Shown here: positions 41,499 to 57,821 of the stretch, in pieces
Layout of the letters: each line of letters begins with the position of its first letter
How positions within the stretch are numbered: position 1 is the first letter of the stretch
Assembly: GCA_026004495.1 (NCBI GenBank)
Contig: BPJG01000001.1
Coordinates: 496,527-560,526, forward strand
DNA from: Candidatus Parcubacteria bacterium
Lineage (GTDB): Bacteria > Patescibacteriota > Minisyncoccia > UBA6257 > HR35
Length of the DNA stretch: 64,000 bases
Direction: 5' to 3'
Position numbers and translations under genes: made by a program
The notes under the pieces: generated by a model
The model's input: the letters and a program-made list of their open reading frames with translations, nothing else
Databases searched by the model: none
Told to the model about the DNA's origin: nothing

Positions 41499-41570
41499 TT
41501 TGGTAAATTAAAAAAATTAATTACGACATTTTTTATAAACTTTATAAACTGAGATAAATAAAATTATAAT

Positions 41571-42227: not shown

Positions 42228-43362
42228 TTTTTATAACTTCTTTAAATTTTTCGATAAAATAATCAATATCTTTCAAGCTAATAATATAAGGTGGTAGAAG
42301 GCGAATAACATTATCTCCAGCCGGTATCGTTAAAATAAAATTTTCTTGAAGTTTTTTAATTATTTCTGTTCTTTTATTATTTACTTCTATTCCAATCATT
42401 AATCCCTTTCCTCTTATATCTTTTAATAAAGGAGAATTAATTTCTTTTAATCTTTTTATTAAATAATCACCTTTTTCTTTTATTTTATTTAAAAAATCAT
42501 CATTTAATAATTCCGTGATTTTTAAAGCTACACTACAAGCCACTAAATTACCGCCAAAAGTTGAGGTATGAAAAAATTTAGGAAGACTTTTGGCTATTTC
42601 TTCTTTAACAATTACAGCACTTAGAGGAAAACCATTAGCAATACCCTTACCTAAGCAAATTATATCTGGAGATACTTCTTCCCATTGACTAGCTAAAAAT
42701 TTTCCTGTTCTTCCTAAACCTGTTTGAATTTCATCTATTATTAGAACAATTTTATTTTTTTGACATAATTTAGATAATTGCTCTAAATAACCAGTAGGTA
42801 GTAAATTTATACCTCCATCTCCTTGAATTGGTTCAATTATTATTACTCCTATTTGCTGATTAATATAACTTAATAATTCATCAAAATTTCCATAATCAAT
42901 AAAATCTACCTTAATTAAAATATCATTTAAATTTGTTTTGTATTTACTATTATAAGTTACCGAAAGTGAACCCAAGGTTTTACCGTGATAACTATTTTTC
43001 ATTGCAATAATTTTTGTTTTTTTAGAAAAATAAAGAGCAAATTTTAAAGCCGCATCTATTGCTTCAGCACCCGAATTCAAAAATAAAATTTTACCTTCAA
43101 TATTACATTTAGCTAATAATTTTTGAGCTAATTCATTTCTAATTGGATTGATAAAACTATTATGAAGATTAATTAGTTCATCTATTTGTTTATTGGCGAT
43201 TTTATTCAGTATATTATTTCGATAACCCAAAATATTAGCTCCATAATTTGACATCATATCTAAATATTTGTTACCATTTTGATCATATAAATAACATCCT
43301 TCACCTTTTATTATTTCTAGGCCTCGATTTAAATATAAATCAAGAAGATAATCTAGTTTCAT
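42220..43362 (-). CDS. argD: Acetylornithine/LysW-lysine-semialdehyde aminotransferase (class III PLP)
   Basis: 380 aa. Class-III aminotransferase with a PLP-Lys region around DIICLGKGIANGFP. Confidence 0.8.
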   Translation of the reverse strand: MKLDYLLDLYLNRGLEIIKGEGCYLYDQNGNKYLDMMSNYGANILGYRNNILNKIANKQIDELINLHNSFINPIRNELAQKLLAKCNIEGKILFLNSGAEAIDAALKFALYFSKKTKIIAMKNSYHGKTLGSLSVTYNSKYKTNLNDILIKVDFIDYGNFDELLSYINQQIGVIIIEPIQGDGGINLLPTGYLEQLSKLCQKNKIVLIIDEIQTGLGRTGKFLASQWEEVSPDIICLGKGIANGFPLSAVIVKEEIAKSLPKFFHTSTFGGNLVACSVALKITELLNDDFLNKIKEKGDYLIKRLKEINSPLLKDIRGKGLMIGIEVNNKRTEIIKKLQENFILTIPAGDNVIRLLPPYIISLKDIDYFIEKFKEVIKNV

Positions 43363-44174
43363 TTATTAATAAAAGTTCCAATTTTTTTATTTAAGGCATC
43401 TTGAATGCAATTTTTTATCCTTCCATCGGTAATAAAAATTTCTGAATCAAAATTAGTTAAAATGTTTTTGATATTTAATAATTTTTTTTTGAAACCATAG
43501 GTTAAATTTTGATTTAAAAGTTTATCAATATCATTAAGATTAAAATTTCGAATAAGACTATTTTCGTCATTAATATTTTTTAAAATACCTGGCTTATCAA
43601 TTACCATTATAATTTTAGTTGGCTTATATTCTTTAGCTAAAAAATAAATTAATTGCTCATTATCAACATTGACTATTTCTCCTTCAGCTGTAATAACTGG
43701 CTGACTAATTACTAAAATAAACTTATTTTCTAGTAGCATATCAATAAGATTTTTATTTATTTCTATAACTTTTCCAGTTAAATTATTGTCAATCAATTTT
43801 ATTTTGCCATCAATTTTAGCAGTTAAAAATTTTTTTCTTTTAGCTATAATTAATTCACCATCAATTCCACTCAAACTAATAGCATTAATTTTTCTTTTTA
43901 TCAACAAACTAACGAATTTTTTACTAACTAAACCTGCATAGCTCATTAAAATTAAATCGATAATATTATTATCAGTAAAAACACTTTTATAACCACTTTC
44001 TGATTCAATAATTCTAATTTGAATATTTAATTTTTGAGCTAATTCATTTCTATACTGATTAGCACCGATAATTATTATAATTTTTTCATCACTATTTTTT
44101 ATCATATAACTAATATCATCGGCTAAGTATTCTAAATTTATATTTTTACTTCCTCCTATTTTTATTATTAACAT
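43359..44174 (-). CDS. argB: Acetylglutamate / LysW-aminoadipate kinase (amino-acid kinase family)
   Basis: 271 aa. MLIIKIGGS... follows the AAK fold pattern. 4-nt overlap with argD. Confidence 0.7.
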   Translation of the reverse strand: MLIIKIGGSKNINLEYLADDISYMIKNSDEKIIIIIGANQYRNELAQKLNIQIRIIESESGYKSVFTDNNIIDLILMSYAGLVSKKFVSLLIKRKINAISLSGIDGELIIAKRKKFLTAKIDGKIKLIDNNLTGKVIEINKNLIDMLLENKFILVISQPVITAEGEIVNVDNEQLIYFLAKEYKPTKIIMVIDKPGILKNINDENSLIRNFNLNDIDKLLNQNLTYGFKKKLLNIKNILTNFDSEIFITDGRIKNCIQDALNKKIGTFINK

Positions 44175-44291
44175 TGAAAATAATTTTTTAAAAAGTTTAT
44201 AATAAATACTTTTCGAATTAATTAAATTTACGATTTTATTATTTAATTTTATTTTAGATTCTTTAATTAAAAAAATATTATAATTAAATTT

Positions 44292-45923
44292 TTAATTAAT
44301 TTTAAAAGGGAATAGGCTTTCTAAGGTTTCTTTTTTAAATTTATCCTCTACTATTTTATTAAGAGCTATAATTGATATTATATCTTCCTTGTCTAATTCT
44401 AGTTCAAGGGGTAATTTTATTCCTCCAAATAAATTCTCGTAGTCTTTTTTTATTATTTCTATTTTGGGATTAAAAAATATATCACTTATTTTATCGGGTA
44501 AACTTTCTTCAATTTCTTTAAAATTGCCATTTATATAATTTTCAAAAATGAACATTAATAATTTTCTAATAAAAATATTCTTTATTATTTTAAGATGCTT
44601 TTTATCTTGATTTTTTTCATTCCAGGTAATTATCCACTCTTCTAAACTTTTTTCTCCTTCTTCTTTTTTTCTAATTTCATTTATGATATTATCAACTTTT
44701 TCTTTTTCTTCTTTTAGGTGTTCAAAATAATTTATTTTTTCTAATAAACTAATAAATTTTTTACTATCTATTTTGATTTCTGAAAATATTTTATCTTTGT
44801 TTATTAAGAATTCTTTAGTTTTTAAATAAAAATCAACAACCCTAATCCTATTTCTAGTTTCTTGATTTACAGGACTTGATAAAGTTTCTTCTAGTCCCAT
44901 ATACTTTGCTGTGTAAAAAAATGGTTCTGAATTTCCAAATAAAAACCTTATTGTATCATTTTCTGTTTTGCCCTCGCTAGATATTTCAAAAATTCTAAAT
45001 CTTTCTTGAGGTTTTTCGGCCTCTAATAATTCTGGTAGACCTAATTTTTTTCTTAATTCGTTAAACTTGCCATATTCTGCGCCTATATGAACTAAATTTC
45101 CTAATATACATATGAGAACAATAAATTCATATGTTATGTCTTTAATCATTTTATTTTTTAAATCATCTAAATAATCTTTTGTAATGCCTAAATCTTCTAT
45201 AATATTTCTTAGGGTTTCGTAATTATCCAAAAGGACATCAGCTAATTGACTATTAATATCTGTAATATTTTGTATTTTTTCATTAATATTTTTGAAAGAA
45301 TTATAATAATCTTTCAAAATAGAAATAACAGTTTTTTGTGCTTCTTCAATAAAAATACCTCTTAAATTAATTTTTAAATTTGAAAGTTCTTTATTTAATA
45401 AAATTTCTAAATTTTCACTAATTTCTTTTTCCCATCCTTCGTTAGATAAATAATCCATTAATTCTAAATGAAAATCTAAAGAAGTTTTAAATTTTTTGTT
45501 TTTAAGAAAAGGTATAATATCACATAAAGAAAATCTAAAATTTCCTAAATATATAAAATCGGGTCTTTCTTGTTCATATTTTTGGTAATAAACTGGATAA
45601 TTAAATATTTTTTCATCATCATCTATAACTTGTTCAATTCTTTTAAAACCTAAATTTAAATAATCTATAGCTCTAGGTCTTAAATGAAGAGTAGTGCTTA
45701 TATATTTTATATTTTGATTACCTAAGATATTCCTAATTTTATTTTTAATATTTTCTAATTCTTCTTCCTTTATATTATACTTTTCCGATATGAATTTTAG
45801 ATCATTAGAAATGGCTTCTTTTCTATTTTCTAAAAAATATTTAAATTTTTCTAATTCTCTAGGATAATCAAATTTTTCTTCTTTATCTAATTTTTTTGTT
45901 TCATAATATTCTCTCTTTTTCAT
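44292..45923 (-). CDS. Hypothetical protein (543 aa), no recognisable domain
   Basis: Long, continuous, host-like ORF. Soluble, rich in K, E and I. Immediately upstream of the lysZ cluster on the same strand. Confidence 0.3.
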   Translation of the reverse strand: MKKREYYETKKLDKEEKFDYPRELEKFKYFLENRKEAISNDLKFISEKYNIKEEELENIKNKIRNILGNQNIKYISTTLHLRPRAIDYLNLGFKRIEQVIDDDEKIFNYPVYYQKYEQERPDFIYLGNFRFSLCDIIPFLKNKKFKTSLDFHLELMDYLSNEGWEKEISENLEILLNKELSNLKINLRGIFIEEAQKTVISILKDYYNSFKNINEKIQNITDINSQLADVLLDNYETLRNIIEDLGITKDYLDDLKNKMIKDITYEFIVLICILGNLVHIGAEYGKFNELRKKLGLPELLEAEKPQERFRIFEISSEGKTENDTIRFLFGNSEPFFYTAKYMGLEETLSSPVNQETRNRIRVVDFYLKTKEFLINKDKIFSEIKIDSKKFISLLEKINYFEHLKEEKEKVDNIINEIRKKEEGEKSLEEWIITWNEKNQDKKHLKIIKNIFIRKLLMFIFENYINGNFKEIEESLPDKISDIFFNPKIEIIKKDYENLFGGIKLPLELELDKEDIISIIALNKIVEDKFKKETLESLFPFKIN

Positions 45924-45932
45924 ATAAAAATT

Positions 45933-46880
45933 TTATAACAATTTTGAAAATAAATTAAATGAGTTTTTAAATAAAACATACGAAGGAACATTAAACTTCC
46001 TTAGACTTTCACTAAATTCTAAATAATTCTTAATTCCTTCATAATTTTCATTAAATTTAAATCCAAAAAAATCAGTTCCTATTGCTAAATTGTTTTTGAA
46101 TTCATTTTTTAAATGCCTAAAAGTTTTTAGCCAATTTATAAAATTAATTTCTCCATTAATATTTATTGAATAAGGCAGGCAAGTTAATCCAATTAACCCT
46201 CCTATGTCTTTTAATAATTTTAGGTTTTTTATATCCAAGTTTTGTTCAAAGTCGATTAATTCTTTAAATCCATTATGAGAGAAGATAACAGGCTTTTTAT
46301 AAATTTTTAAAATATCTCTGAATGTGTTTATAGATGAGTGAGCTAAATCTAATACAATTGGTAGTTTCTCTAATATTTTTATTAATTGCTTGCCTTCTTT
46401 TGTTAAACCCTTATTAGTTGTATTTTTTAATGAAGCAGAAAATTTTGTGTCTTCATTCCAATTTAATCCGAATACCCTTATACCTTTTTTATATAGTGAA
46501 TATATATCACTAATATTATTTAAAAAATTTAATCCTTCTGTACCCAAGATTAATCCTATATTTTTGGATTGTAAAACATCCTTTAAATCTCTTTTGTTAT
46601 ATATGATTTTAAATATCTTAAATCTATTTATCCATTTTAAGAATCTCTCTAATCTTTCCATAAATTGAGTAATATTTATAGGAACCCATTTATTATTTAT
46701 AAATTCAAAAGGAAAAATATTTACGACAGCAAATTTTAACCCTGATTTTAAAAATTGTGGTATATCACCATGCCTTTTTAATTCTAATATACTGAGATTT
46801 TTATATTTCATATTCAAAAATTTAGGGAACCTAAGATAAACTTCTATATCAAGATGTAAATCAAATATTACATTTTTCAT
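45933..46880 (-). CDS. Peptidase M19 (membrane/renal dipeptidase family)-like metallohydrolase
   Basis: 315 aa. N-terminal IFDLHLDI resembles the DGHND metal site. VIFSHNGFKELIDFEQNLDIKNLKLLKDIGGLIGLTC matches the M19 pattern SHS...RN..D..L....GG.IG. Confidence 0.45.
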   Translation of the reverse strand: MKNVIFDLHLDIEVYLRFPKFLNMKYKNLSILELKRHGDIPQFLKSGLKFAVVNIFPFEFINNKWVPINITQFMERLERFLKWINRFKIFKIIYNKRDLKDVLQSKNIGLILGTEGLNFLNNISDIYSLYKKGIRVFGLNWNEDTKFSASLKNTTNKGLTKEGKQLIKILEKLPIVLDLAHSSINTFRDILKIYKKPVIFSHNGFKELIDFEQNLDIKNLKLLKDIGGLIGLTCLPYSININGEINFINWLKTFRHLKNEFKNNLAIGTDFFGFKFNENYEGIKNYLEFSESLRKFNVPSYVLFKNSFNLFSKLL

Positions 46881-47923
46881 GGAATTAATTTTAACTCTCT
46901 TTGAATATTTTCAAATTTTTCTCTTATCTCTACTCTAAGATTATGAAAATGAATACTTTCATTAACTTCTACCTCTAATTCTATAAGACTTTTAGGATCT
47001 AATTTCTTACCTAAGCTTTCTACTGATTCTTTTACAATTTCTCTTGCTACATCTTCACAAAATTGTTCTTTTATCAAAGCTTCTTTAATAAAATCAAACT
47101 CATCTTTACCGCTTAATAATTCTCTAGTAATTAAAACACTCTTATTCAAAATTTTATAAATTTCATTATGAGTTATATTATTTTTTAAATCTTCAATTAT
47201 TAACTTTGCCGTACCTAAATTAGTATGAGATCCAAAATTTAATGGATTAATTACTTTATAAATATCCTTATCAGATAAACCTAAACTTTTTAAATAATGA
47301 TAAGCTTCTCTTATACTCCATCTTTGAGGACAAGGGCAAGCATTCATAAATGGAACATCCATCCCTAATTTGTATCTAATTTCATCTTTATTTAAAAAAC
47401 CAATGGCTATAATTTTTATGTTTTCATGAGCTAATCTACCGGATGAATTTTTATCAATTAACTTTTCATAATTAAATACAATCTTTATAATACCAGTTTC
47501 TCTATTTTGTAATTCTGCTGCATATTTAATAAGATTTTTTAAATATTCTTTTAAATTAGTTCTACTAAACTGATATTTTTGCATAGCTTTTTCTATTCGA
47601 GACATATGTAAACCTCTCTGATTTTCTGGCAAATCAAAGAATATTTCAATATCTACTTCTGGTTCGATTATTTTATTTTTTTCAAAAATATCTTCAATTT
47701 GTATTTTATGTTTTCTGTTTGTTACTCCTACTTTTGGAAGTGGAAATAAAATTTTTGGAGTAGAAGCTGGTATATCTACAAAATTTTTTTCATCTATATT
47801 TTCAAAATTTTTTATACCTTTGACCTCTAATAGTGGTTGAAATTGGAATGTTGATACTACCTTTTGATTTTTTAAACTTCGAACTTTCAACGATTTTAAT
47901 GAACCAAAAATTTTGTTTATCAT
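46877..47923 (-). CDS. Possible GTP cyclohydrolase FolE2/MptA-family (T-fold) protein; uncertain
   Basis: 348 aa. GLHMSRIEK resembles the G-T-H-M-S-R-F segment I recall from FolE2/MptA, and there is a C-terminal CPCPQ Cys pair. The recollection is not firm. Overlaps the M19 gene by 4 nt. Confidence 0.3.
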   Translation of the reverse strand: MINKIFGSLKSLKVRSLKNQKVVSTFQFQPLLEVKGIKNFENIDEKNFVDIPASTPKILFPLPKVGVTNRKHKIQIEDIFEKNKIIEPEVDIEIFFDLPENQRGLHMSRIEKAMQKYQFSRTNLKEYLKNLIKYAAELQNRETGIIKIVFNYEKLIDKNSSGRLAHENIKIIAIGFLNKDEIRYKLGMDVPFMNACPCPQRWSIREAYHYLKSLGLSDKDIYKVINPLNFGSHTNLGTAKLIIEDLKNNITHNEIYKILNKSVLITRELLSGKDEFDFIKEALIKEQFCEDVAREIVKESVESLGKKLDPKSLIELEVEVNESIHFHNLRVEIREKFENIQRELKLIP

Positions 47924-48007
47924 TTTTAATTTTTATTTATAACTTTTAAGTATCAATAAAGAATAATAATCGACCAGTATATTTTTTTAATATATAAAAT
48001 AAAAAGA

Positions 48008-48030
48008 CCGGCTTTTGTGCCGGCTTCTTT
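48008..48030 (-). terminator. GC hairpin (CCGGC-ttttgt-GCCGG) with flanking A/T runs; best read as a minus-strand intrinsic terminator
   Basis: On the minus strand the hairpin is followed directly by TCTTTTTATTTT. It could stop leftward transcription leaving the foreign trpS island. Confidence 0.4.
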
Positions 48031-48497
48031 AGATATTTTTTAAGATAACTAATTATGCCGGCACTCTTCCGATTCTTAATAATAAATTAATAATTAAAAA
48101 TAAATTCCAATTTTTTATAATCTCACTTTTCATTATTGTGAAAAATTTTAAATTAAAAAAAATTTTTGTCAAGAGTTTTAACTATTAAAGTAAATGTTAA
48201 TAATGATTTTGAATTTTAAACCGACAATGGAAATTAATATTTTCTCTTTTAGGTTATTTATTAATTAAAGTTATTTCATTAAAATTATTTTTTAATATTT
48301 ATATTATTTTTTGTAATTTAATCTTTTCTTTTATTTTATTTTTTAAACCAGTTTTAAAAGGTGAAACTATTGGGATGATTTTAATTGCTTTATTTATGAT
48401 AATTTTTTATTATTTTTTGGGATTTAATTGTTTATCATAATTAAAAAATTTTTTTATGTTTATAAGTTAACATTATTAAAAAAAATTTTTTTTGGAT

Positions 48498-48721
48498 TAA
48501 AATGGCGGTATCTTTTGGACAAAATCCGAACCTATTTTGAACAAAATCCCGATGCCGAAATCTAACCTGTGCGTCCGCCTTCGGCGGACGCACACCCACC
48601 CACCGCCCAAAACGAGCAAGCGGACAAAAATTTCCCCCCAGATTCTCCCTTGTCTGCTAGTTGAATGATTGAATTAAACTTGGCAAAATTTTATTATAAT
48701 AAATATAACAATAATAAAGTT
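48498..48721. repeat. IR1-L: left copy of a 224-bp inverted repeat, about 98% identical to IR1-R
   Basis: Its reverse complement matches 50174-50397 with 3 mismatches by manual alignment. About 50% GC. It contains a perfect palindromic hairpin GTGCGTCCGCC-TTC-GGCGGACGCAC at 48569-48593 and, at its inner end, a truncated copy (MIELNLAKFYYNKYNNNKVVAEKID*) of the N-terminus of the 68-aa HTH ORF. Confidence 0.85.
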
Positions 48722-48905
48722 GTGGCGGAAAAAATAGATTGATAGCGTCTCTCATTCTATAAATTTCAGGTGCAGTATTAAAACATTACCTAAATCAATA
48801 TCATGGAAAAATGGAGCAAAACTTTGTAATTCTTTTGGTATTTTTTGCTTCTTCATGGTTTTTTAAAAAAGAAATGCTGGAGTTGTTGAAATAACCCCAC
48901 CCCGT

Positions 48906-49973
48906 TTAATCGAATCGCAGGACTTTCCTGACTTCGCTAAGGGTTTCGATGGCGTTTTCTCTAGCCACCTTAGCCCCCTCTTCCAGGGCGGAAGAAATGT
49001 ACGACGGGTCGTGCAAAATCTCAGCCCTCTTCTCCTGAAACTCACTGAGGAAGTTCTGAACGATGCGAGTCAGAATTTGTTTAAACTGACCCATTACTGG
49101 TTTGCCACTCTTATGTTCCTGGATAACGGCATCCACCTCATCGCGTTCCGATTGGGTTTTTGCCAGCCCCTTGGCAATTAAGATATGGCTTTCCAGTTTC
49201 TCGTTCATTACTCCCTCAAATGCAGTCTCAGCGGCTTTGATCTTGTTGGCAACCGTCTTTAGGTCATCCGTCAGGAAAATAGCACCGCCAGGATTACTTT
49301 TGCTCATCTTGCCCTTTCCTCTCAGGGCAAGAATACGTAGCGACTTAACCTGCAACACCTGAGGAATTGGAAAAATCTCCCCGTACTTCTTGTTGAACCT
49401 GCGAGCGAGGAGACGCGTAACCTCCATGTGTGCGAGCTGATCTTCTCCCACCGGTACCCTTTTGGCTCTGTTCAACAAGATGTCAGCAGCCATTAGTACC
49501 GGATAAAGAAGAAGGAGGGCATTAGCAGTTTCCGGCCGTGCGTTGTTCTTGAGCTTATCCTTGAGAGTCGGTACTCTCAAGAGTTCAGCCACAGAAACAA
49601 GCCTAGACAGAATCGCGGTAAGCGTTGTTACCTCTCCCGCTATATCCGATTGGAGATAGATCTTCGCTTTCTGCGGATCAACTCCAAGCGCGATGTAGTC
49701 AGCTACGACTCCGTGGATGTACTGCCTCACAGTATCCGGTTCGTTGTCCGTGATCGCGTGCAAATCGGCAACGAACACAACCGGAGACACGCCCTGTGTT
49801 TGAAGTTCAACAATGGGAGCTACTGCCCCCAGGTAGTTGGCGACGGTCAAGTCGCCAGTGGGCCTGATGCCCGTCAGTAACTCAACCTTGTAATCCATGG
49901 TAGACGCCTCCTTTTTTAGGGTACTATCCATACTATAATCCTTTTTCCATTTTTTGCCAAGATCATATGTCAT
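48906..49973 (-). CDS. trpS: Tryptophanyl-tRNA synthetase, compositionally foreign (about 50% GC by eye)
   Basis: Class-I aaRS. TGDLTVANYLGA is a HIGH-region variant typical of TrpRS, and KMSKS is present. The likely true start is the internal MDYK Met near 49898, which has a GGAGG RBS 8 nt upstream, giving about 331 aa. The gene is far more GC-rich than anything around it. Confidence 0.85.
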   Translation of the reverse strand: MTYDLGKKWKKDYSMDSTLKKEASTMDYKVELLTGIRPTGDLTVANYLGAVAPIVELQTQGVSPVVFVADLHAITDNEPDTVRQYIHGVVADYIALGVDPQKAKIYLQSDIAGEVTTLTAILSRLVSVAELLRVPTLKDKLKNNARPETANALLLLYPVLMAADILLNRAKRVPVGEDQLAHMEVTRLLARRFNKKYGEIFPIPQVLQVKSLRILALRGKGKMSKSNPGGAIFLTDDLKTVANKIKAAETAFEGVMNEKLESHILIAKGLAKTQSERDEVDAVIQEHKSGKPVMGQFKQILTRIVQNFLSEFQEKRAEILHDPSYISSALEEGAKVARENAIETLSEVRKVLRFD

Positions 49974-50023
49974 ATCTATTTTTGTTTGATTACACTAATA
50001 ACGACCGTGTCTTTTATGTCTAA

Positions 50024-50230
50024 TTATATTCTAAACGTTGGCCTAAAAGGTTTTAATATACCCTTAACATCATAACATCTCAAAACCATACTGGAAACTC
50101 CGAATATTTTGGATACCTGTTTTATTGTCAGTAATTCTGGGAATCTTTCTGATTCCATAATCGCTTGCTCTAAAACTTTATTATTTTTATATTTATTATA
50201 ATAAAATTTTGCCAAGTTTAATTCAACCAT
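50024..50230 (-). CDS. Excisionase/AlpA-like (MerR-superfamily HTH_17) small DNA-binding protein
   Basis: 68 aa. LTIKQVSKIFGVSSMVLRCYDVKGIL fits the Xis/AlpA HTH. Its first roughly 55 nt lie inside IR1-R, and a truncated inverted copy lies in IR1-L. Confidence 0.5.
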   Translation of the reverse strand: MVELNLAKFYYNKYKNNKVLEQAIMESERFPELLTIKQVSKIFGVSSMVLRCYDVKGILKPFRPTFRI

Positions 50231-50397
50231 TCAACTAGCAGACAAGGGAGAATCTGGGGGGAAATTTTTGTCCGCTTGCTCGTTTTGGGCGGTGGGTGGG
50301 TGTGCGTCCGCCGAAGGCGGACGCATAGGTTAGATTTCGGCATCGGGATTTTATTCAAAAAAGGTTCGGATTTTGTCCAAAAGATACCGCCATTTTA
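50174..50397. repeat. IR1-R: right copy of the 224-bp inverted repeat
   Basis: See IR1-L. Its outer end is ...CCGCCATTTTA, the inverted att-like 11-mer. Confidence 0.85.
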
Positions 50398-50521
50398 CGA
50401 TTTCAGAGCTTTGAGAAGTTCTTGCCTCGCCTTCGCTTCGCTCGGGCTCGGCAAAAGCCACGATTTTATACGGATTTTTGAAATAAAAAAAACAATTTCT
50501 GCCCGCTCAAAAGAAAGTTCG
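50387..50521. repeat. IR2-L: left copy of a 135-bp inverted repeat, about 95% identical to IR2-R
   Basis: Its reverse complement matches 52001-52135. It is GC-rich (CTCGCCTTCGCTTCGCTCGGGCTCGGC). It begins with the same CCGCCATTTTACGATTTC terminus that ends IR1-R, so the two IR systems abut and share 11 nt. Confidence 0.8.
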
Positions 50522-50620
50522 CCGTGCGAAGCACGGGCAAAATAAAATTTTGCAAAACAATCTTTTTTCTCTCGCTTCTGGCGAAAAGCAAAGCGATAAT
50601 TTAATTTTGGTAAAACAAAT

Positions 50621-52056
50621 ATGACAAAAGAAAATTCAAAAAGAAAATTTTTCATTTATGTCCGCAAGTCAACTGACTCAGAAGACAGACAAGTAAGAAG
50701 TATTCAGGACCAAATTGCGGAACTCAAGGAATTGGGGAAAAAAGGAAAATTTAGAAATCGTTGATATTTTGATTGAAAAACAAACCGCTAAAATTCCCGG
50801 AAGGCCAGTTTTTAATGAAATGCTGAAAAGAATTCAATCAGGCGAAGCGTCTGGATCCTGACCGGCTTGCTCGTAATTCTATTGACGACGGGCAAATTAT
50901 TTATCTTTTGGATACCGAAATTATCAAAGAGTTAAAATTTCCTACTTTTTGGTTTGAGAATACGCCACAAGGAAAGTTTATGTTATCTATCGCTTTTGGC
51001 CAATCAAAATACTATATTGATAATCTTTCAGAAAATATCAAAAGGGGACATCGGCAAAAATTAAAACAAGGTTTATGGCCCCAAATGGCGCCTCTTGGTT
51101 ATCTCAACGATACAAAAACAAAACAAATTTATGTTGATAAAGAAAAAGCACCGCTTATTAAAAAGGCGTTTGAACTTTACGCTACTGGAAAATATACCTT
51201 GAAAGAAATTAGAAAAATCATTAACGATTTGGGGTTGCGGGGAAGAAAAAATAAACCTCTTTCAACTTCAAATTGTTAATATCTTTTACAAAATCCTTTT
51301 TATTACGGAGTGATGAGATACAACGGCGAATACTACGAAGGAAGGCACGAACCGATTATTACAAAGAAACTTTTTGATGATGTTCAGGAAGTAATGAAAC
51401 AAAAATCAAAACCGCAAAAACCAGACAAAATGAAATTTTTTCTTTATCGCGGATTATTTCGTTGTGGAGAATGCAGTTATGCCATTACCGCGGACAGAAA
51501 AATCAAAAAGAGCGGGAAACAATACACCTATTACTATTGCACCAAGAAAAACCCAAATCATAAATGCTCGCAAAATGTTTTTACCAGAGAAGAAAAAATT
51601 TTATCCCAAATCAATGAAGTGCTACAAAAAGTTTCTTTATCTAATGATTGGGCTGATTGGATGATAAAAAAACTTGAAAGAGAAAAAGAAGAAAAAGTCC
51701 AATCATCACGCTTTTTTGCTCAAAAGATTGAAAGCGAAATAAAGGAGATTGACGAGAAGTTGGAAAAGTTAATGACTGCCTACCTTGAAAATGCTTTGTC
51801 TTTAGAATAATACCGAGAAACCAAAAATAAACTTATTAATCAAAAACAACTCCTGAAAGATAAACTAATCGCTTTTGAGCAAAAAAGCAATAATCGGTTC
51901 GAACTCGCCATAAAATTCATAAATTCCTTAAAACAAAGCCAGATTATCGCTTTGCAAGAAAATCACGAGCAAAGCCGGGATTTTCTAAAAAAGATTAGTT
52001 CGAACTTTCTTTTGAGCGGGCAGAAATTGTTTTTTTTATTTCAAAAATCCGTATAA
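50621..52056 (+). pseudogene. Large serine recombinase (resolvase domain, recombinase domain, zinc ribbon, coiled coil), disrupted
   Basis: N-terminus MTKENSKRKFFIYVRKSTDSEDRQVRSIQDQ with the catalytic Ser motif. One frameshift in an A6 run near 50738. A second indel near 50850, upstream of DRLARN. Two in-frame TAA stops, at 51277 (...STSNC*YLLQNPFYYG...) and 51808 (...LSLE*YRETKNKL...). CGECSYAITADRK...YYYCTKKN is the zinc ribbon. The last roughly 19 codons lie inside IR2-R. GC is intermediate between host and trpS. Confidence 0.65.
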
Positions 52057-52135
52057 AATCGTGGCTTCTGCCGAGCCCGAGCGAAGCGAGGGCGAGGCAA
52101 TACCTTCTCAAAATCATGAAATCGTAAAATGGCGG
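52001..52135. repeat. IR2-R: right copy of the 135-bp inverted repeat, abutting tRNA-Ser
   Basis: See IR2-L. It ends in TAAAATGGCGG, whose last 6 nt are the CCGCCA 3' end of tRNA-Ser on the minus strand. Confidence 0.8.
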
Positions 52136-52219
52136 AAGGGGTGGGATTCGAACCCACGAGGCCCCAGAAGAGGCCACGGCTCTCCAGGCCGTTCCGTTAA
52201 TCCACTCCGGCACCCTTCC
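52130..52219 (-). tRNA. tRNA-Ser (anticodon GGA) with a long variable arm and encoded CCA
   Basis: Folded by hand. Acceptor GGAAGGG/CCCTTCC, a 3-bp D-stem, anticodon stem ACGGC/GCCGT with loop CTGGAGA, variable arm GGCC-TCTTCTGG-GGCC, T-arm GTGGG-TTCGAAT-CCCAC, discriminator G plus CCA. Confidence 0.85.
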
Positions 52220-52442
52220 AAGATATACTAGAATAATAAGGCTAAATATTTAAAAAAATAAATTCATAATTATTAATTCATTAATTAAAATTTATTTTAT
52301 TATAATATTAGGATAATATAATTATAACAAATAAAACTACAAAGATAATTTTTTATATTAATTTATGAGCTATGAATAAATTTTTGATTAAAATTTATTT
52401 TTTTATTAAGAAGCATTTTAAAGCAAAAGCAAAAATTAAAAA

Positions 52443-53300
52443 ATGGAAATTAAAAGATTTATATTAATAACAACAGTTTTTATCCTGGGTATTATTTCAA
52501 TATTTTTTGTTTTTTCAATAAAAAATCATAAAGAATTTATAGCTCCTAAGATTGGTGTTACTATTTATCCCCTTTATGATGTTGTTAAAGAAATTGTTGG
52601 TGATAAATATGAGGTTGTTTTAATTGTCCCTCCTGGCGCTGAACCTCATAATTATGAATTGAAAATAGAAGATGTTAAAAAACTTCGAGGCATTAAAATA
52701 GTTTTTGCTAATGGTTTAGGAATTGATGATTGGACAGAAAATTTAATTAAAAATTTTAAAGATGTAAAAATAATTTACTTATATCAAAGTGTTGATTTAA
52801 TTGATCAGGATCCTCATTTTTGGCTTTCTTTAGAAAATATGAAAAAAATTGCGAAGATTGTCGAAAAAGAAATGGAAAACTTTGATAAAAAAAATAGAGA
52901 GTATTATCAAGAAAATTTAGATAAAGTTTTAGAGAAAATAGAAAATCTACAAACAGAAGCAAAACAAACAGTTTTTTCAAATAAATTCATTATTACCCAA
53001 CACAATGCTTTTAATTACTTAGCTAAGGAATTAAATTTAAATGTCGCCGGTTATTTAGAAGGAGAAAACAAAGAATTAACCCCAGCTGACCTTTCACAAT
53101 TAATTAATAAAATAAAAATTTTAAATATAAAAGTGATTTTTAAAGAGCCAGGAGAAGAGAATAATCTTTTGAAAACAATAGCCCAGGAATATAATTTAAA
53201 AATCTATGAATTAGATTCAATTGAAGGCAAAAGTGGTTTAAACTATTTTGACGCTTATAGAAAAAATATAGAAACTCTAAAATTTATACAAAACGAATAA
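52443..53300 (+). CDS. znuA: Metal (Zn/Mn) ABC transporter substrate-binding protein, TroA/ZnuA family
   Basis: 285 aa. N-terminal anchor, then the cluster-9 SBP pattern with a metal-binding His in PPGAEPHNYE. Confidence 0.7.
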   Translation: MEIKRFILITTVFILGIISIFFVFSIKNHKEFIAPKIGVTIYPLYDVVKEIVGDKYEVVLIVPPGAEPHNYELKIEDVKKLRGIKIVFANGLGIDDWTENLIKNFKDVKIIYLYQSVDLIDQDPHFWLSLENMKKIAKIVEKEMENFDKKNREYYQENLDKVLEKIENLQTEAKQTVFSNKFIITQHNAFNYLAKELNLNVAGYLEGENKELTPADLSQLINKIKILNIKVIFKEPGEENNLLKTIAQEYNLKIYELDSIEGKSGLNYFDAYRKNIETLKFIQNE

Positions 53301-53571
53301 AACTTATATAACACTAATCGCAAGGAAATTATTTATAAGTTACACTAATTTTTATAAATATTTTAGAAATTTTACCTCGAACGGTGCCTTATAATAGAAA
53401 AGAGTATAATTTAGATGTATTCTGTTTTGGTTCTTGTTTGTGATTTGTTATATAATTAGTTGTATTATTTTATTTAATGGTTATTATAATTACCTAAGTG
53501 GTAATATTTACCATCTAACAGATTAAGTATATAATTCAATATCATATTTTAACCTATGCTAAAATTTAATT

Positions 53572-54288
53572 ATGAATGCTTTAGAGGTAAAAAATTTGAT
53601 TGTTAAGATTGGGGAACAAGAAATTATTAGAAATATTAGTTTCGTTTTGCCTGAAGGAACAATTACTGCCTTAATTGGTCCAAATGGAGCTGGTAAATCT
53701 GTCTTATTAAAAACAATTCTCGGTCTTTTTCCTTATTATGGAGAAATAAAAATTTTTGGTGAAAATCATTTAAAAATGCTAAATTTTGTTGGTTATGTGC
53801 CTCAAAATTACACACTTGATCCCATTTTGCCCTTAACAGTTTTTGAATTTTTAAAATTTAGTAATAGAGATAAAAATAAAATTAACGCGGCATTAAAAGA
53901 AACTGATATCTATGAATTAAAAAATAGAAACTTAGTTCAATTATCAGGAGGTCAACTACAAAGAGTCTTATTTGCTCGTGCAATCCTAAACGAACCAAAA
54001 ATTTTACTTTTAGATGAGCCAGTTTCTGAAACAGATATTGTGGGTAAAAAAGAATTTTATGAAATAATTAAATACTTAAATCAAGAAAAAAAAGTAACTA
54101 TTTTGATTACCAGCCATGAAATTACTATTATCCATACCTTTGCTCAAAGAGTTTTGTGTTTAAATAGATCTTTAGTTTGTGTTGGATCAATAACTGAACT
54201 TTTTAAAGAAGAAATTTTAAAACAACTTTATCAGAGAGATATTTTTGTTTATCCCTTCAATCGTCCAAATACAAATACAAATGAATAA
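53572..54288 (+). CDS. znuC: Metal ABC transporter ATP-binding protein
   Basis: 238 aa. Walker A GPNGAGKS, signature LSGGQLQR and Walker B LLLDEP. Confidence 0.75.
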   Translation: MNALEVKNLIVKIGEQEIIRNISFVLPEGTITALIGPNGAGKSVLLKTILGLFPYYGEIKIFGENHLKMLNFVGYVPQNYTLDPILPLTVFEFLKFSNRDKNKINAALKETDIYELKNRNLVQLSGGQLQRVLFARAILNEPKILLLDEPVSETDIVGKKEFYEIIKYLNQEKKVTILITSHEITIIHTFAQRVLCLNRSLVCVGSITELFKEEILKQLYQRDIFVYPFNRPNTNTNE

Positions 54289-54309
54289 TTACTATAATCT
54301 TAAATTATT

Positions 54310-54370
54310 GTCTGCTTTCAGTCCGCGTAATTCTGCATTAAAATTAAATTGTCTGCGTAAGTCTGCGTAT
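54310..54370. repeat. Short array of the decamer GTCYGCGTAA in the znuC-znuB spacer
   Basis: Copies at 54321-54330 (GTCCGCGTAA), 54351-54360 (GTCTGCGTAA), 54361-54370 (GTCTGCGTAT) and a partial GTCTGCT at 54310-54316. Locally GC-enriched. Confidence 0.5.
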
Positions 54371-54386
54371 AATCTGGTTATAAAAT

Positions 54387-55190
54387 ATGAATTTATTTGA
54401 ATATCCATTTTTATTAAAATCATTAATTATTAGTTTTTGGTTAGGTATTGTTTTTGCCTTATTAGGTATTTTTGTTTTTATTAAAAGAATGTCTTTTTTT
54501 AGTGATGGAATTGCTCATTCATCTATTTTAGGTTTAGCGATAGCTTTTTTATTAAATTCTAATATATTACTTTTTGCCCTTTTAAATGGTGTTATTTTTT
54601 CACTTTTAATCTATTATTTAGAAAGAAAAACAAAAATTCATTCTGATACTTTAATAGGTCTTGTCTTTGTTTCTTCTTTATCCTTAGGATTGATACTTAT
54701 GTCATTAAAATCTTCTTATCAACCAGAACTTTTAAATTTTCTAATTGGTAATATTTTAACAATTAGTAATTTTGATTTTGTTTTGACAATAATTTTTTCT
54801 GTTTTAGTTTTAACTTTTATTATTTGTCAATTTCCCAAAATAATTTTAGCCCTTTTAGATCCCGTTGAGGCAAGATTAAGAAAAATAAATGTTAATCTTT
54901 ATGAGTTTTTGTTTTATTTAATTTTAGGTATTAGTGTAATTTTAGGTATTAAATTAGTTGGCGTTATCTTAATAACCGCCTTTTTAATTTTACCAGCTGC
55001 AACTTCATCTTTGGTCTCTTCATCCTTTAAAAGTTTTATTTATTTAAGCATTATCTTTGCTTTATTTAATGTTGTTTTTGGTTTTTTAATTTCTAATTTT
55101 TATAATTTTCCCTTGGGAGCAAGTATTGTTCTTTCTGGTTTTTTTATATTTTTCAATCTCTTTTTAATAAAGAATTTTTTAAATAAGTAA
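54387..55190 (+). CDS. znuB: Metal ABC transporter permease (ABC-3 family)
   Basis: 267 aa with 7-8 TM segments, ABC-3/ZnuB-like. Confidence 0.7.
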   Translation: MNLFEYPFLLKSLIISFWLGIVFALLGIFVFIKRMSFFSDGIAHSSILGLAIAFLLNSNILLFALLNGVIFSLLIYYLERKTKIHSDTLIGLVFVSSLSLGLILMSLKSSYQPELLNFLIGNILTISNFDFVLTIIFSVLVLTFIICQFPKIILALLDPVEARLRKINVNLYEFLFYLILGISVILGIKLVGVILITAFLILPAATSSLVSSSFKSFIYLSIIFALFNVVFGFLISNFYNFPLGASIVLSGFFIFFNLFLIKNFLNK

Positions 55191-55214
55191 AAAAATATTA
55201 TTTTTAATAATTTG

Positions 55215-55287
55215 AGCGGTGGACGGGATTCGAACCCGCGACCTTCTGCTTGGAAGGCAGACGTTCTACCAACTGAACTACCACCGC
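55215..55287 (-). tRNA. tRNA-Gly (anticodon TCC)
   Basis: Folded by hand. Acceptor GCGGTGG/CCACCGC, D-arm GTTC...GAAC, anticodon stem TCTGC/GCAGA with loop CTTCCAA, T-arm GCGGG-TTCGAAT-CCCGT, discriminator U. No encoded CCA. Confidence 0.85.
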
Positions 55288-55357
55288 TTATTTAAAATAA
55301 AATATATTATAAGTTAATTTAGAAAATATTTAAAGATAAAAAATTTGTTAATTTAAA

Positions 55358-55386
55358 TTGACTAAAACTAAATTACTTGATAAAAT
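55358..55386 (+). promoter_or_regulatory. Sigma-70-type promoter candidate (TTGACT-17 nt-TAAAAT) upstream of the 55444 gene
   Basis: -35 TTGACT at 55358-55363 and -10 TAAAAT at 55381-55386, about 58 nt upstream of the ATG. The hexamers and spacing are identical to the candidate at 33338. Confidence 0.4.
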
Positions 55387-55443
55387 ATTTTTAGGCGACT
55401 ATTATAAAGTTAAGTTTTAAAATTACTTTCTCTAATAAAAAAA

Positions 55444-56502
55444 ATGAAAGAATTACTTTATGAAACCCTTGATGATTTAATATCTAATTTAGACCTAAGA
55501 CAAAAAGATATTTTTAAAAAAAGATTTGGTTTAGATGATAAACAATATACTTTAGCAGAATTAGGAAGAAATTATAACTTAACTCGTGAAAGAATTAGAC
55601 AAATTCAAAGCAATATTTTAAAAAATATACACGAAAAAATTTATAGCCATAATTTTCTTCAAAAAGATTTCCTCTATCATTTAAATAAATATTTAGGTAA
55701 TCTAAAAATTAAAAGATTGGAATATATAAAATTAAAGTTTAAAGAAAATTATAATTTTGATTTAGGAGAATTAAAAATTTTAGAATTATTTTTAAGAATT
55801 CACCCTCAAGTTTATTTATTCGAGGAAAATGAAATCTATAATAATTTTATTTATTTGCAAGAAGAATATTTTAGAAATCTAAATAATTTTACTAAACATA
55901 TTATAAATTTTTTTGATAAAGAAAAAGTTATATCCGAAATAGAATTCTTAGAATTTTTAAAAGGGGAGATCTTTAATCATTTCAAAATTGAAACTGGCAT
56001 AGATGAAATATATGAATTTATAAGATTATTTAAAATAATTAGAAAAAATCCTTTCAATGAATTTGGATATATAAAGAATAAAAGAATTTTACCATCCTCA
56101 TTAATCGATAAAATAAGATTAATTTTATCTTTTGAAAAAAGGCCACTTTCTTTTTATGAAATTTATAAAAAACTTAATGAAATTAACAAAATTGACGATG
56201 AATTTATTCATCAAGTGTGGAAGAAAAAATATTCCTTAAGAACAGTTCATTATATTTTAAATAGTTATAAAAAAGAATTTGTTTTAGTAGGTAGAGGAGT
56301 TTATACTCTTAAAGATTGTGGTATAAAAGAAGGAAAATTAATTGATATTATCACTGAATTAGTAAAAGAAAATAATGGTTTATCGTTGGATGACCTGTTA
56401 GATAATCTAAAAAAACAACAGAGAATTTTTTCTAAAAATACCTTCTTAATTTATGTTTATAGAAATTTTAGAGTAATTAATGGTAGGGTTTATTTAAGAT
56501 GA
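55444..56502 (+). CDS. Sigma-70 region-4-like HTH protein with a roughly 280 aa uncharacterised C-terminal region
   Basis: 352 aa. Residues about 20-60, LDDKQYTLAELGRNYNLTRERIRQIQSNILKNI, resemble sigma region 4.2. The rest is unassigned. Confidence 0.4.
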   Translation: MKELLYETLDDLISNLDLRQKDIFKKRFGLDDKQYTLAELGRNYNLTRERIRQIQSNILKNIHEKIYSHNFLQKDFLYHLNKYLGNLKIKRLEYIKLKFKENYNFDLGELKILELFLRIHPQVYLFEENEIYNNFIYLQEEYFRNLNNFTKHIINFFDKEKVISEIEFLEFLKGEIFNHFKIETGIDEIYEFIRLFKIIRKNPFNEFGYIKNKRILPSSLIDKIRLILSFEKRPLSFYEIYKKLNEINKIDDEFIHQVWKKKYSLRTVHYILNSYKKEFVLVGRGVYTLKDCGIKEGKLIDIITELVKENNGLSLDDLLDNLKKQQRIFSKNTFLIYVYRNFRVINGRVYLR

Positions 56503-57821
56503 TAGATTATTTGAGATTTATAATTGGCTTTCTATTTTCTGTTTGGTGGCTTATTTTGCCTTTAATTTTATGGTATATAGTAAAAGAAAAACATTTAATC
56601 ACTAAAAGAATTACTTATCGTGCTAAAATTCAATGGATTTTTTTAGAAATTAAAATTCCCGAATTTGTTAAAAAAACTCCTTCAGCAATGGAGGAAATAT
56701 TTTATTCTCTTCATGCAATTTATAGAGGTGGAGATCTTTATTCAAAATATATTTTAGGTTTTACCCCACCTTTTTATGTTTTTGAATTTATTGGTCATAA
56801 TGGAAAATTAAGATTTATTATTCGGTGTCATAAAAATTTAAAAGATTTTGTTACGAGTCGAATATATTCTCAATATCCATCTGCCTTAATCGAAGAGGTT
56901 GAGGATCCGTTAAGGGACTTGCCTTGGAAAATTCCCAATCCTACCTATAATGTTTTTGGAACTGAATTTACTTTTACTAAAAAAGAAGATGACAAATTAA
57001 CGCCTAAGAATTATTATCCGATAAAAACATATAAAGTTTGGGAAAATCTTAAAGACGAAGAAAAAATTGACCCCATTTCTGTTTTTTCTGAAGGCGTCTC
57101 ATATTTAACTGATCAAGAATGGATAATTTTACAAATTATGGCTATGCCTGTGTTAGGCAGTGATAAAGAATTTGGAGTAGAATGGCAAATTAGAGGTACT
57201 AAAGAAATTAATAAAATAATGGGAAGAAAAGAAAAAACTGAACCGTCTCCCTTTGAATATATTGGTGAATTTATTAAAAATTTGCTTTTAGCATTTGCAG
57301 GTCAAAAAATTGAATGGAAAGTTGGAAAAGAAGATCAAAAAAGTGAAGATGTATCTATATTAAAATTATCTCCCGGAGAAAGAGAAGCTATTGAGTCAAT
57401 AGAAAGAAAAATTTCTAAACCTGGTTATTGGTGCGTAGTAAGATTTTCATATGTTGCTAAAAATGATGTTTTTTCTAAAAATATTGATAAAAATGTTGCT
57501 TTAGTTATGGGAACATTAAAAGTTTTTGATAATCCAAGTGGTAATGGTATAGTTAGAGATACTAAAACCATTACAAGTATTGATAGGCCAATTTCTGGCA
57601 AGGTTCCTTATTATAATGAAAAAATATTTTTTAGAAAAAGATTTATTTGGCTTTATACCAAAGGAAGATTTCCAAGTGACTTTAGCTCAAATAGAATTAT
57701 TTTAAATACCGAAGAAATAGCCTCTATTTATCATATACCCCAAGATGTTGGTCCTTATTATGGTATTGAAAAAATTCCTACTAAATATATACCTCCCAGC
57801 TCAGAGGTACCTGAGTTTTAA
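56499..57821 (+). CDS. Hypothetical membrane-anchored protein (440 aa)
   Basis: N-terminal TM helix, then a soluble domain with no recognised motif. 4-nt overlap with the upstream gene. Confidence 0.3.
   Translation: MIDYLRFIIGFLFSVWWLILPLILWYIVKEKHLITKRITYRAKIQWIFLEIKIPEFVKKTPSAMEEIFYSLHAIYRGGDLYSKYILGFTPPFYVFEFIGHNGKLRFIIRCHKNLKDFVTSRIYSQYPSALIEEVEDPLRDLPWKIPNPTYNVFGTEFTFTKKEDDKLTPKNYYPIKTYKVWENLKDEEKIDPISVFSEGVSYLTDQEWIILQIMAMPVLGSDKEFGVEWQIRGTKEINKIMGRKEKTEPSPFEYIGEFIKNLLLAFAGQKIEWKVGKEDQKSEDVSILKLSPGEREAIESIERKISKPGYWCVVRFSYVAKNDVFSKNIDKNVALVMGTLKVFDNPSGNGIVRDTKTITSIDRPISGKVPYYNEKIFFRKRFIWLYTKGRFPSDFSSNRIILNTEEIASIYHIPQDVGPYYGIEKIPTKYIPPSSEVPEF

Follow-up and report, generated by a model that had tools for sequence, protein, structure and literature searches.

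We analysed a 64,000-nt stretch of contig BPJG01000001.1 from a Candidatus Parcubacteria bacterium (the window in what follows) and identified at positions 48498–52135 what appears to be a decayed integrative element seated at the 3' end of a tRNA-Ser gene. Its cargo is the front end of a gene cassette found in Candidate Phyla Radiation (CPR) bacteria, and the cargo gene that survives, trpS, encodes a tryptophanyl-tRNA synthetase (TrpRS) whose richness in G+C (GC) would stem from the lineage of the gene itself and from a very stable predicted fold of its RNA. We give this reading, taken as a whole, a probability of roughly 0.75; it builds on direct observation of the anatomy of the island, the family relationships of its parts, their composition and the fold statistics of trpS. 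If it is correct, a core translation enzyme moves on a defined integrative element among ultra-small CPR bacteria, whose genomes are usually seen as streamlined and static. The features of the island, with the basis of each assignment, are as follows.

48498–48730, minus strand: left inverted arm, attL-type end (233-nt inverted repeat at 96%; base-by-base comparison; comparison with att sites of loci L055–L057; Logan contig L058)
48717–48856, minus strand: stub of an S-adenosylmethionine (SAM)-methyltransferase gene (tblastn, two pieces in different frames, 82–83% to the L003 methyltransferase)
48906–49898, minus strand: trpS, bacterial-type tryptophan-tRNA ligase of 330 aa (Pfam, NCBIfam, structure alignment, composition, motifs)
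49907–49960, minus strand: candidate expression signals of trpS, a promoter-like site and a GGAGG ribosome-binding site (consensus scan and sequence)
49960–49932, minus strand: the promoter-like site itself, TTGGCA-17-TATAGT (consensus scan, 10/12 positions; a consensus match only)
50024–50158, minus strand: truncated gene for a small helix-turn-helix (HTH) protein of MerR/HTH_17 type (Pfam MerR and MerR_1; translation through the stop; relatives in L001, L003, L004 and L008)
50165–50521, plus strand: intact attP-like arm inside the island, in inverse orientation to the tRNA (overlap of both inverted repeats at the core; comparison with L055–L057)
50621–52056, plus strand: large serine recombinase pseudogene with Resolvase, Recombinase and Zn-ribbon domains (Pfam on fragments; three-frame translation; intact relatives)
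52001–52135, minus strand: attR-type junction, arm Y and core joined to the tRNA 3' end (135-nt inverted repeat at 94%; the junction recurs in L055 and L057)
52130–52219, minus strand: tRNA-Ser(GGA), intact, the putative integration target (ARAGORN; Rfam tRNA, 54.8 bits)

The segment between the att-like site at 48498 and tRNA-Ser(GGA) spans 3.6 kb and is organised by two inverted repeats, one pairing 48498–48730 with 50165–50397 and the other pairing 50387–50521 with 52001–52135. The repeats are nested and their overlap is 11 nt long. This shared 11-mer, the core CCGCCATTTTA, is made of the tRNA's six terminal 3' bases (CCGCCA) followed by TTTTA and is present in three copies, which in the orientation TAAAATGGCGG are located at 48498, 50387 (as the reverse complement) and 52125. 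Read in that orientation, the three sites connect host, core and arm X (48498), arm Y, core and arm X (50387) and arm Y, core and tRNA (52125), and from these sequences we assign them as putative attL, inverted attP and attR, respectively. At the attR-type site the CCGCCA end of the tRNA is supplied by the core. The three junctions fit a single integration event, and the nested inverted repeats would be explained because one arm recombined with the 3' end of tRNA-Ser and the other stayed intact inside. A sequence-only reading of this DNA had described a repeat-bounded segment directly at the 3' end of tRNA-Ser(GGA); both elements of that description hold, with the difference that the repeats are inverted and nested.

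Moving inward from the host, the left arm contains the core (48498–48508), arm X, made up of a pseudo-tRNA 3' half and a GC hairpin at 48568–48594, and, last, the promoter region of the cassette (P), in a copy that ends 18 nt before its ATG. The internal arm is composed of P (~50165–50240), X (~50240–50386), the core (50387–50397) and Y (50398–50521). Beside the core, the sequence of X (AGGTTCGGATTTTGTCC...CCGCCA) is similar to the tRNA's T-arm and acceptor 3' half (GGGTTCGAATCCCACCCCTTCCGCCA). The half-sites beside the core form an imperfect dyad, CCAAAAGGTA-CCGCCATTT-TACGATTTCGG, and the pairing of CCAAAAGGTA with TACGATTTCGG would be consistent with what is expected of a serine-integrase site. 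The hairpin of arm X (48568–48594 and 50301–50327) has a 12-bp GC stem and a GAA loop, is followed by a T-rich tail and faces the core, in the manner of a terminator; arm X of L055–L057 is without it and has a longer GC stem further out instead. Arm X seems to tolerate such a hairpin insertion. The consensus fold of eight aligned copies of arm X was weak (-10 kcal/mol) with little covariation, and we treat X as a probable recombinase-binding arm carrying a terminator-like hairpin. A 7-bp "acceptor stem" that can be drawn in the arm X of the window was rejected, as it is not conserved in L055–L057. Rfam searches of 48300–52400 (E<=1 with a meaningful score) returned the tRNA alone, so that a T-box leader, tRNA-like element, tmRNA or SRP RNA in the GC-rich arms or in trpS was discarded; ARAGORN found no extra tRNA or tmRNA.

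The recombinase fragments match N-terminal resolvase, recombinase and zinc-ribbon domains in that order, the relatives carrying PF00239, PF07508 and PF13408. The reading frame is broken by frameshifts (near 50740 and near 50855) and by TAA codons lying in frame at 51277 and 51808, which mark it as a pseudogene of its family and give substance to the recombinase remnant that had been noted next to trpS. The reconstructed protein has more than 100 relatives at 63–92% identity, almost all from Patescibacteria; intact members are 516–547 aa long and up to 91% identical, and many relatives lie on short contigs or at contig ends. Inverted X-core-Y arms bracket the recombinase in L055, L056 and L057 as well. 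One arm abuts tRNA-Ser(GGA) in L055 and tRNA-Ser(GCT) in L057, and the recombinase end that faces the tRNA is the 5' end in L055 and the 3' end in the window and L057. L056 has two complete arms and, after a different cargo, a third site of attL type. That cargo, at 933–4939 between the arm copies, comprises an HTH_3 regulator and two N6/N4 DNA methyltransferases, with a HinfI-like endonuclease further on, and the junction of the attL-type site falls within the CCGCCA core.

These arrangements suggest a circular element whose recombinase segment and cargo segment would be kept apart by two inverted attP arms. Recombination between one arm and the 3' end of tRNA-Ser would yield an attR (tRNA-core-Y) and an attL (X-core-host), the unused arm would stay intact within the island, and the two recombinase orientations could result from integration via either arm or from later inversion. 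The proposal that a foreign, recombinase-associated island lies at tRNA-Ser with trpS as its cargo is upheld by the att-type junctions, by the recurrence of the same recombinase, arms and junction in independent metagenomes (L055 and L057) and by the presence of the trpS module at unrelated positions in other CPR genomes.

Because the segment is flanked by repeats, and because L002, a Parcubacteria genome from the same sample, has a related cassette, we considered whether the GC-rich gene of another organism had been joined to this contig through those repeats during assembly. The independent Logan contig L058 (run DRR290133) reproduces window positions 42821–48548 at 100%, passes the host/island junction by 51 nt and shows the left-arm-specific variants. 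With a difference of 4–6% between its two copies, neither arm is a single graph node used twice. The inner left junction, where the promoter copy meets codon 46 of the methyltransferase gene with a frameshift, is a unique deletion scar, and the DNA of trpS is 16% different from that of the L002 copy. The three junctions follow att logic and recur in other samples; among them the tRNA-Ser/core/Y junction, the type found on the right, is seen in L055 and L057. Run DRR290133 also holds a contig of a KatS3mg metagenome-assembled genome (MAG), L002 is another KatS3mg genome, and FolE2 and TrpRS were annotated by the depositors as consecutive proteins (GIW66012.1 and GIW66013.1). The KatS3mg MAGs were assembled from PacBio HiFi reads with an N50 of 10.5 kb (PMC9671151). 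HiFi reads of ~10 kb are much longer than the island, although we infer the link between this MAG set and the contig of the window. With the right junction of the window itself still counting in its favour, we consider a chimera very unlikely.

The open reading frame (ORF) at 48906–49898 is assigned by its sequence as a true bacterial-type TrpRS of class Ic. It matches Pfam tRNA-synt_1b (PF00579; E=7e-56) and NCBIfam TIGR00233 trpS (265.1 bits against a cutoff of 176.75) and aligns end to end with solved bacterial TrpRS structures. The motifs PTGDLTVANYLG, GKMSKS, VGEDQ and DLHAIT align with those of the structures and of CPR relatives. The sequence-only reading had taken TGDLTVAN for a variant of HIGH; LT(V/I)AN occurs throughout the CPR TrpRS clade and corresponds to T-I-G-N in ordinary bacterial TrpRS, so it is no peculiarity of this gene. 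The KMSKS motif and the gene's own GGAGG, both described earlier, are present, the latter at 49911–49907, 8 nt 5' of the ATG (49898). Compared with its closest relatives, trpS shows a nonsynonymous divergence (Ka) of 0.06–0.07 and a synonymous divergence (Ks) of 0.7, and it has one private substitution, S191A, at positions invariant in 15 other clade members. The gene contains zero Trp codons. Trp residues are likewise absent from 20 of the 21 CPR-clade TrpRS proteins examined (the window and L001–L020), L016 having two, and cysteine is absent from most of them.

In composition, the gene stands apart from its host. The window averages ~24% GC, and 1-kb windows reach up to 0.48 solely at 49–50 kb; in 100-nt windows GC is 0.46–0.57 across 48900–49899 versus 0.10–0.30 in host DNA on both sides. 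For trpS itself, GC is 0.50 and GC at third codon positions (GC3) 0.56, whereas host ORFs of 150 aa or more (n = 47) have GC 0.245 +/- 0.034 and GC3 0.136 +/- 0.018 (maximum 0.181), a separation of more than 20 sd in GC3. The contrast between a trpS of about 50% GC and a host of about a quarter GC was thus correctly described. The earlier account of a GC-rich aminoacyl-tRNA synthetase (aaRS) gene of about 1 kb needs one correction. The TrpRS is real, but the GC-rich tract is confined to the 330-codon core ORF; the 25 extra upstream codons of the 355-aa product annotated by the depositors, which reaches 49973, are AT-rich.

The relatives of this TrpRS comprise more than 100 protein clusters at 71–90% identity, the named ones belonging to Parcubacteria, Falkowbacteria, Paceibacterota and others, together with some evidently mis-binned short contigs. 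In a neighbour-joining tree, in which Streptomyces sequences were not included, the cassette-type TrpRS form a tight clade inside CPR TrpRS. Native-type CPR TrpRS that are not accompanied by the cassette are 52–65% identical to the window protein, and the closest relatives outside the CPR (Firmicutes, Bacteroidota and others) only 35–39%. The donor pool is therefore the CPR rather than a high-GC phylum, contrary to the high-GC donor lineage that had been offered for placement on a phylogeny. The GC3 of trpS ranges across the clade from 0.18 to 0.62 and does not follow host GC, which is consistent with repeated transfer. A phage origin was rejected, no relative being present in the viral contig collection.

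The same grouping with CPR TrpRS could be taken to mean that trpS is a native, vertically inherited gene that is GC-rich by chance and happens to lie beside an unrelated recombinase relic, all the more since housekeeping genes are GC-richer than accessory ones in some CPR genomes (DnaK and RelA have GC3 of 0.50–0.54 in L052 and L046). We find this scarcely credible. The gene is located between attL and the internal attP amid cassette debris, its closest relatives (88–90%) occur in different contexts in differently classified CPR bins while native-type enzymes are at 52–65%, and no host gene in the window exceeds a GC3 of 0.18.

The cargo is best understood from intact copies elsewhere. The full CPR cassette encodes a MerR-type HTH protein, TrpRS and a SAM-methyltransferase on one strand and, converging from the other strand, an NAD-epimerase, an archaeal-type TrpRS-like paralogue in which KMSKS is kept, UbiA and a TrpD-like glycosyltransferase-3 enzyme. 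The methyltransferase is CmoB-like, and the paralogue scores far below the trpS cutoffs. Representative loci are L001 5171–12121, L002 9926–16633, L003 698–6627, L046 10001–15675 and L052 9379–15112. Gene order is kept in L001–L008, L011–L014, L046, L049 and L052 at unrelated chromosomal positions, with flanks that vary by genome and include a MacB transporter, a pilin cluster and the hrcA-grpE-dnaK operon. The cassette could encode a small pathway, either biosynthetic or for modification of the envelope. At the DNA level, 13 other CPR loci are homologous to the window across 48722–50201, exactly between the inner ends of the arms.

Little of this cassette is left in the window. The methyltransferase gene, full length in L001–L003, L006 and L046, is reduced to a stub of ~46 codons with one frameshift that is fused to the left arm. 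As the left-arm promoter copy is joined to methyltransferase codon 46, ~5.5 kb of the cassette must have been deleted internally. The HTH gene ends at a premature stop after 44 codons (58–60 in relatives). This is the gene that had been called excisionase-like, a label we do not retain: it accompanies trpS in recombinase-free cassettes (L001, L003 and L004) as its MerR/HTH_17 partner, is absent beside the recombinase in L055–L057, and scores 21 bits against the "excise" model, below the cutoff of 28.8. In L003, a 205-nt inverted repeat (498–702 and 6623–6827, 99%) puts the same promoter region ahead of both convergent operons, which suggests co-regulation, perhaps via the MerR-type protein. 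In L008, arm X is independently joined to promoter P, the HTH gene and trpS; X is therefore a part of the recombinase element, and members of this element family have picked up the cassette on two or more occasions. Among the contexts in which the module occurs, the L008 contig alone is GC-rich (53% GC), and beyond arm X it has a 139-aa ORF at 309–728 (minus strand); this short contig may be nearer to a donor-like state of the element.

The recombinase, HTH and methyltransferase genes of the island are all broken and trpS alone is intact. Together with its motifs, its single private substitution, its low Ka relative to Ks and the promoter-like site and GGAGG ahead of it, this argues that trpS is what selection retains, and on sequence grounds it is most likely expressed and selectively kept as a working TrpRS. 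It may also be the main or sole TrpRS of the cell. The earlier observation that no other trpS is visible in the window stands, as tblastn of the 64 kb, out of a contig of 634 kb, gave no second TrpRS-like sequence, and replacement of a native trpS would be favoured in view of the very small genome and the loss of the remainder of the cassette.

The alternative is that trpS is an auxiliary copy conferring resistance, either to a tryptophan-analogue antibiotic in the environment or to the product of the cassette itself, with a native AT-rich TrpRS elsewhere in the genome. The tight linkage of TrpRS, in many CPR genomes, to enzymes with tryptophan- or anthranilate-related folds lends this idea some weight, a duplicated target gene within an enzyme cluster being a classic self-resistance pattern, as does a gene that is mobile and unusually conserved (75–92% identical across hosts). 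The putative biosynthetic genes are nonetheless deleted in the window and trpS is intact. In addition, the histidine equivalent to B. stearothermophilus H43, which we take to be the residue contacting indolmycin-type inhibitors, is retained in a DLHAIT motif of the ordinary type, and alignment of the motifs with structures and CPR relatives showed no substitution of the indolmycin type. Standard TrpRS structures score above the auxiliary TrpRS II of Deinococcus (E 2e-53 versus 3e-39), and the suggested link to the indolmycin-resistant enzymes of actinomycetes is accordingly not supported. A species-level scan of low sensitivity found no second TrpRS match in genomes with a cassette trpS, and genomes of ~0.6 Mb seldom retain redundant housekeeping genes. 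We therefore regard an auxiliary resistance copy as unlikely, though deserving of more weight than a curiosity.

Why trpS is so GC-rich is a separate question, and the simplest answer, that high GC marks DNA recently received from a GC-richer donor and not yet ameliorated, with any RNA structure incidental, has several observations behind it. Private synonymous changes run from GC to AT ~2.3 times as often as the reverse (49–65 GC>AT versus 22–27 AT>GC), more diverged members of the clade show falling GC3 (to 0.18) and weaker fold scores, and the L008 module adjoins DNA of 53% GC. The pattern in related loci argues in the other direction. Within an AT-rich cassette, the trpS ORF alone carries the GC spike, which recurs in at least a dozen other CPR genomes; in the loci of the closest relatives GC3 is 0.57–0.62 in trpS, 0.24–0.33 in the other cassette genes and ~0.14–0.19 in host genes. 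Among the window, L001, L002 and L003, Ks is 0.6–0.7 for trpS, less than half the 1.2–2.7 of its cassette neighbours, yet the protein distances of trpS and neighbours are correlated (Spearman 0.56–0.76), so that the low Ks is not due solely to a recent, independent exchange of trpS within the cassette. The protein relatives of the enzyme are, moreover, all from the CPR. GC content as a simple signature of a foreign donor, as first proposed, is not supported by these comparisons.

The feature that coincides with the GC spike is an extreme predicted RNA fold. The minimum free energy (MFE) of trpS is -383.5 kcal/mol versus -314 +/- 9.5 for dinucleotide shuffles (z -7.3), and a second set of dinucleotide shuffles gave z of -9.0 for the window, -8.5 for L001, -9.3 for L002, -9.2 for L004 and -8.2 for L012; L052 (-6.2) and L003 (-3.0) are less extreme. 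Values between -2.5 and +0.9 were obtained for clade members of lower GC, for the native trpS of CPR bacteria, for neighbours in the cassette, for host genes and for a dnaK control, the 47%-GC DnaK control giving -1.2. When protein and codon usage were held constant by shuffling synonymous codons, the GC-rich trpS alleles gave z of -7.9 to -9.6, and 33 host ORFs gave -0.39 +/- 0.83 with a minimum of -2.9 (the ORF at 36956–37966, plus strand, GC 0.32). Both halves of trpS contribute (z ~-5 each). Relative to the antisense strand, the sense strand gains 47 kcal/mol in stability, an excess that points to G-U pairs and hence to RNA rather than DNA. The consensus fold of seven alleles has 308 pairs and -269 kcal/mol versus -174 +/- 8 for codon-column shuffles, with 27 double-sided pair changes versus 16 +/- 3 in shuffles and 8–18 in slid controls.

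For a recent donor, these values are difficult: z of -8 to -9.6 against synonymous shuffles goes beyond what base composition alone gives, as the DnaK control illustrates, L012, whose Ks to the others is nearly saturated, is still hyper-structured, and the genes next to trpS in the cassette co-diverge with it at far lower GC3. We consider the recent-donor explanation improbable and conclude that GC-richness is a property of the trpS gene lineage rather than the mark of a high-GC donor phylum. In our reading, selection may favour a very stable trpS mRNA fold, keeping GC high and Ks low. A stable fold would require G or C at synonymous sites and so slow their divergence, while particular helices would turn over; in AT-rich hosts the composition would decay slowly, and the property would erode in some lineages. 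We would guess that the fold serves the stability or expression of a mobile message free of Trp codons.

Several observations weigh against the overall reading of a decayed integrative element with a lineage-determined, structured trpS. On the side of the island, the integration pathway and its attP x attB chemistry are those presumed for the recombinase family, a check of the right junction via ZnuA and ZnuC gave no contig that reaches it, and a search via FolE2 relatives found no empty attB, the nearest sibling genome (L059) not being syntenic on that side. On the side of the gene, its promoter and fold are predictions, and that it is the sole TrpRS copy is a guess. The excess of GC>AT changes means that its composition is not at equilibrium. 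Conservation at the level of pairs is modest: in the MFE structure of the window trpS, paired synonymous sites vary just slightly less than unpaired ones (34.5% and 40.1%, p=0.03), and changed sites keep pairing no more than slid controls do. Crown-group alleles share 23–77% of predicted pairs, but L012, equally stable, shares 11–16% with the others; L046, L049, L011 and L009 have ordinary structure (z -0.2 to -1.4). Given the weak per-site test and the different fold of L012, strict conservation of a single RNA architecture was rejected. As L012 reaches equal stability with differing pairs, selection may act on bulk stability and not on one architecture.

A bolder extension can be offered tentatively, and we would put it at somewhat below an even chance. 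The structured fold of the ~1-kb trpS RNA may have been selected so that a mobile gene free of Trp codons can function whatever the AT-rich CPR host, for instance through evasion of RNases or of the Rho-dependent silencing that acts on foreign transcripts, and trpS may be the immunity or companion gene of an undescribed tryptophan-related cassette spread by tRNA-Ser-targeting elements with twin inverted attP arms. If so, GC islands in AT-rich genomes may mark structured mRNAs, besides non-coding RNAs or foreign DNA.

The element shares its three-domain recombinase (Resolvase, Recombinase, Zn-ribbon) with phiC31- and Bxb1-type integrases, the Ccr proteins of SCCmec and TnpX of Tn4451, and elements of this class likewise have short att sites with a small core and an imperfect dyad and carry cargo beside the recombinase. 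Unlike them, it targets a tRNA 3' end, to our knowledge a habit of tyrosine rather than serine integrases, and its attP is doubled as two inverted arms (~0.25–0.36 kb) around a recombinase that occurs in both orientations in nature; the recombinase of the window copy is a pseudogene. With tRNA-gene islands, classically formed by tyrosine integrases, it has in common the insertion at a tRNA 3' end, the replacement 3' end supplied by the element, a decayed tRNA-like half in the arm, foreign composition and a decaying remnant. It differs from these islands in its recombinase family, in direct repeats limited to the 11-nt core and in internal repeats that are inverted. The placement of a recombinase gene between inverted sites, with both orientations found (L055 versus the window and L057), recalls Hin/hix of Salmonella; in contrast to that system, the recombinase is a large one, the arms are hundreds of nucleotides long and double as attachment sites, and no switchable promoter was identified.

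As a complete aaRS gene carried between genomes on a mobile element, trpS resembles mupA/ileS2 on plasmids, the second, indolmycin-resistant TrpRS of Streptomyces and TrpRS II of Deinococcus. It is related to these at the family level only, is without a resistance-type substitution, comes from the recipient's own superphylum and is tied to a conserved enzyme cassette. Synonymous sites that give far more pairing than chance over the full length are also known from MS2-type single-stranded RNA phage genomes, whereas trpS is a DNA-encoded, cellular-type gene that is not known to serve replication or packaging and in which individual helices are partly conserved only.

[quoted passage not shown] The CPR loci of that study likewise pair a bacterial-type TrpRS with an archaeal-type TrpRS-like protein and have a TrpRS free of Trp residues; the partners in the present cassette are instead TrpD-like, UbiA, epimerase and methyltransferase proteins, and neither a tRNA-Trp(A73) gene nor ORF1 was seen in it. 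A prior description of CPR serine-recombinase islands at tRNA genes, or of structured GC-rich genes in Patescibacteria, was not found in the searchable literature. Mobile aaRS genes, tRNA-targeted islands and serine-integrase elements were each known separately. Their combination in the CPR is new, as are the twin inverted attP arms, the conserved tryptophan-related cassette and the GC-rich coding sequence with its hyper-stable predicted fold. The anatomy of an abundant CPR recombinase family, with its tRNA-Ser target and twin inverted attP arms, is hereby defined, and this family could be a source of new integrases. The analysis also separates a "GC-rich patch" from a "high-GC donor", provides a testable case of synonymous-site selection for gene-length RNA structure, and brings to attention a conserved, uncharacterised cassette in which TrpRS is linked to a TrpRS-like ligase and to TrpD- and UbiA-type enzymes.

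Some further features of the region were observed. The cumulative GC skew has its minimum at 49–50 kb (region ~39000–57000), gene orientation flips around the island (minus strand at 42–48 kb, plus strand at 52–57 kb), and an AT-rich spacer of 10–17% GC occupies 48100–48500. A replication origin beside the island was considered and rejected: DnaA-box matches numbered 23 versus 18.7 expected, with no cluster and none in the AT-rich spacer. In the sibling Parcubacteria genome L059, a further large serine recombinase of 541 aa, accompanied by genes for a MerR protein and a primase/helicase (2548–6611), is located beside tRNA-Asn(GTT), a few kb from folE2 of that genome, and the folE2 neighbourhood may be a hotspot for such elements. 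A TyrRS gene lies near this L059 element (7494–8714), and in L014, a Berkelbacteria bin, a TyrRS gene (5517–6704, minus strand; TIGR00234, 311 bits) is directly beside the trpS cassette.

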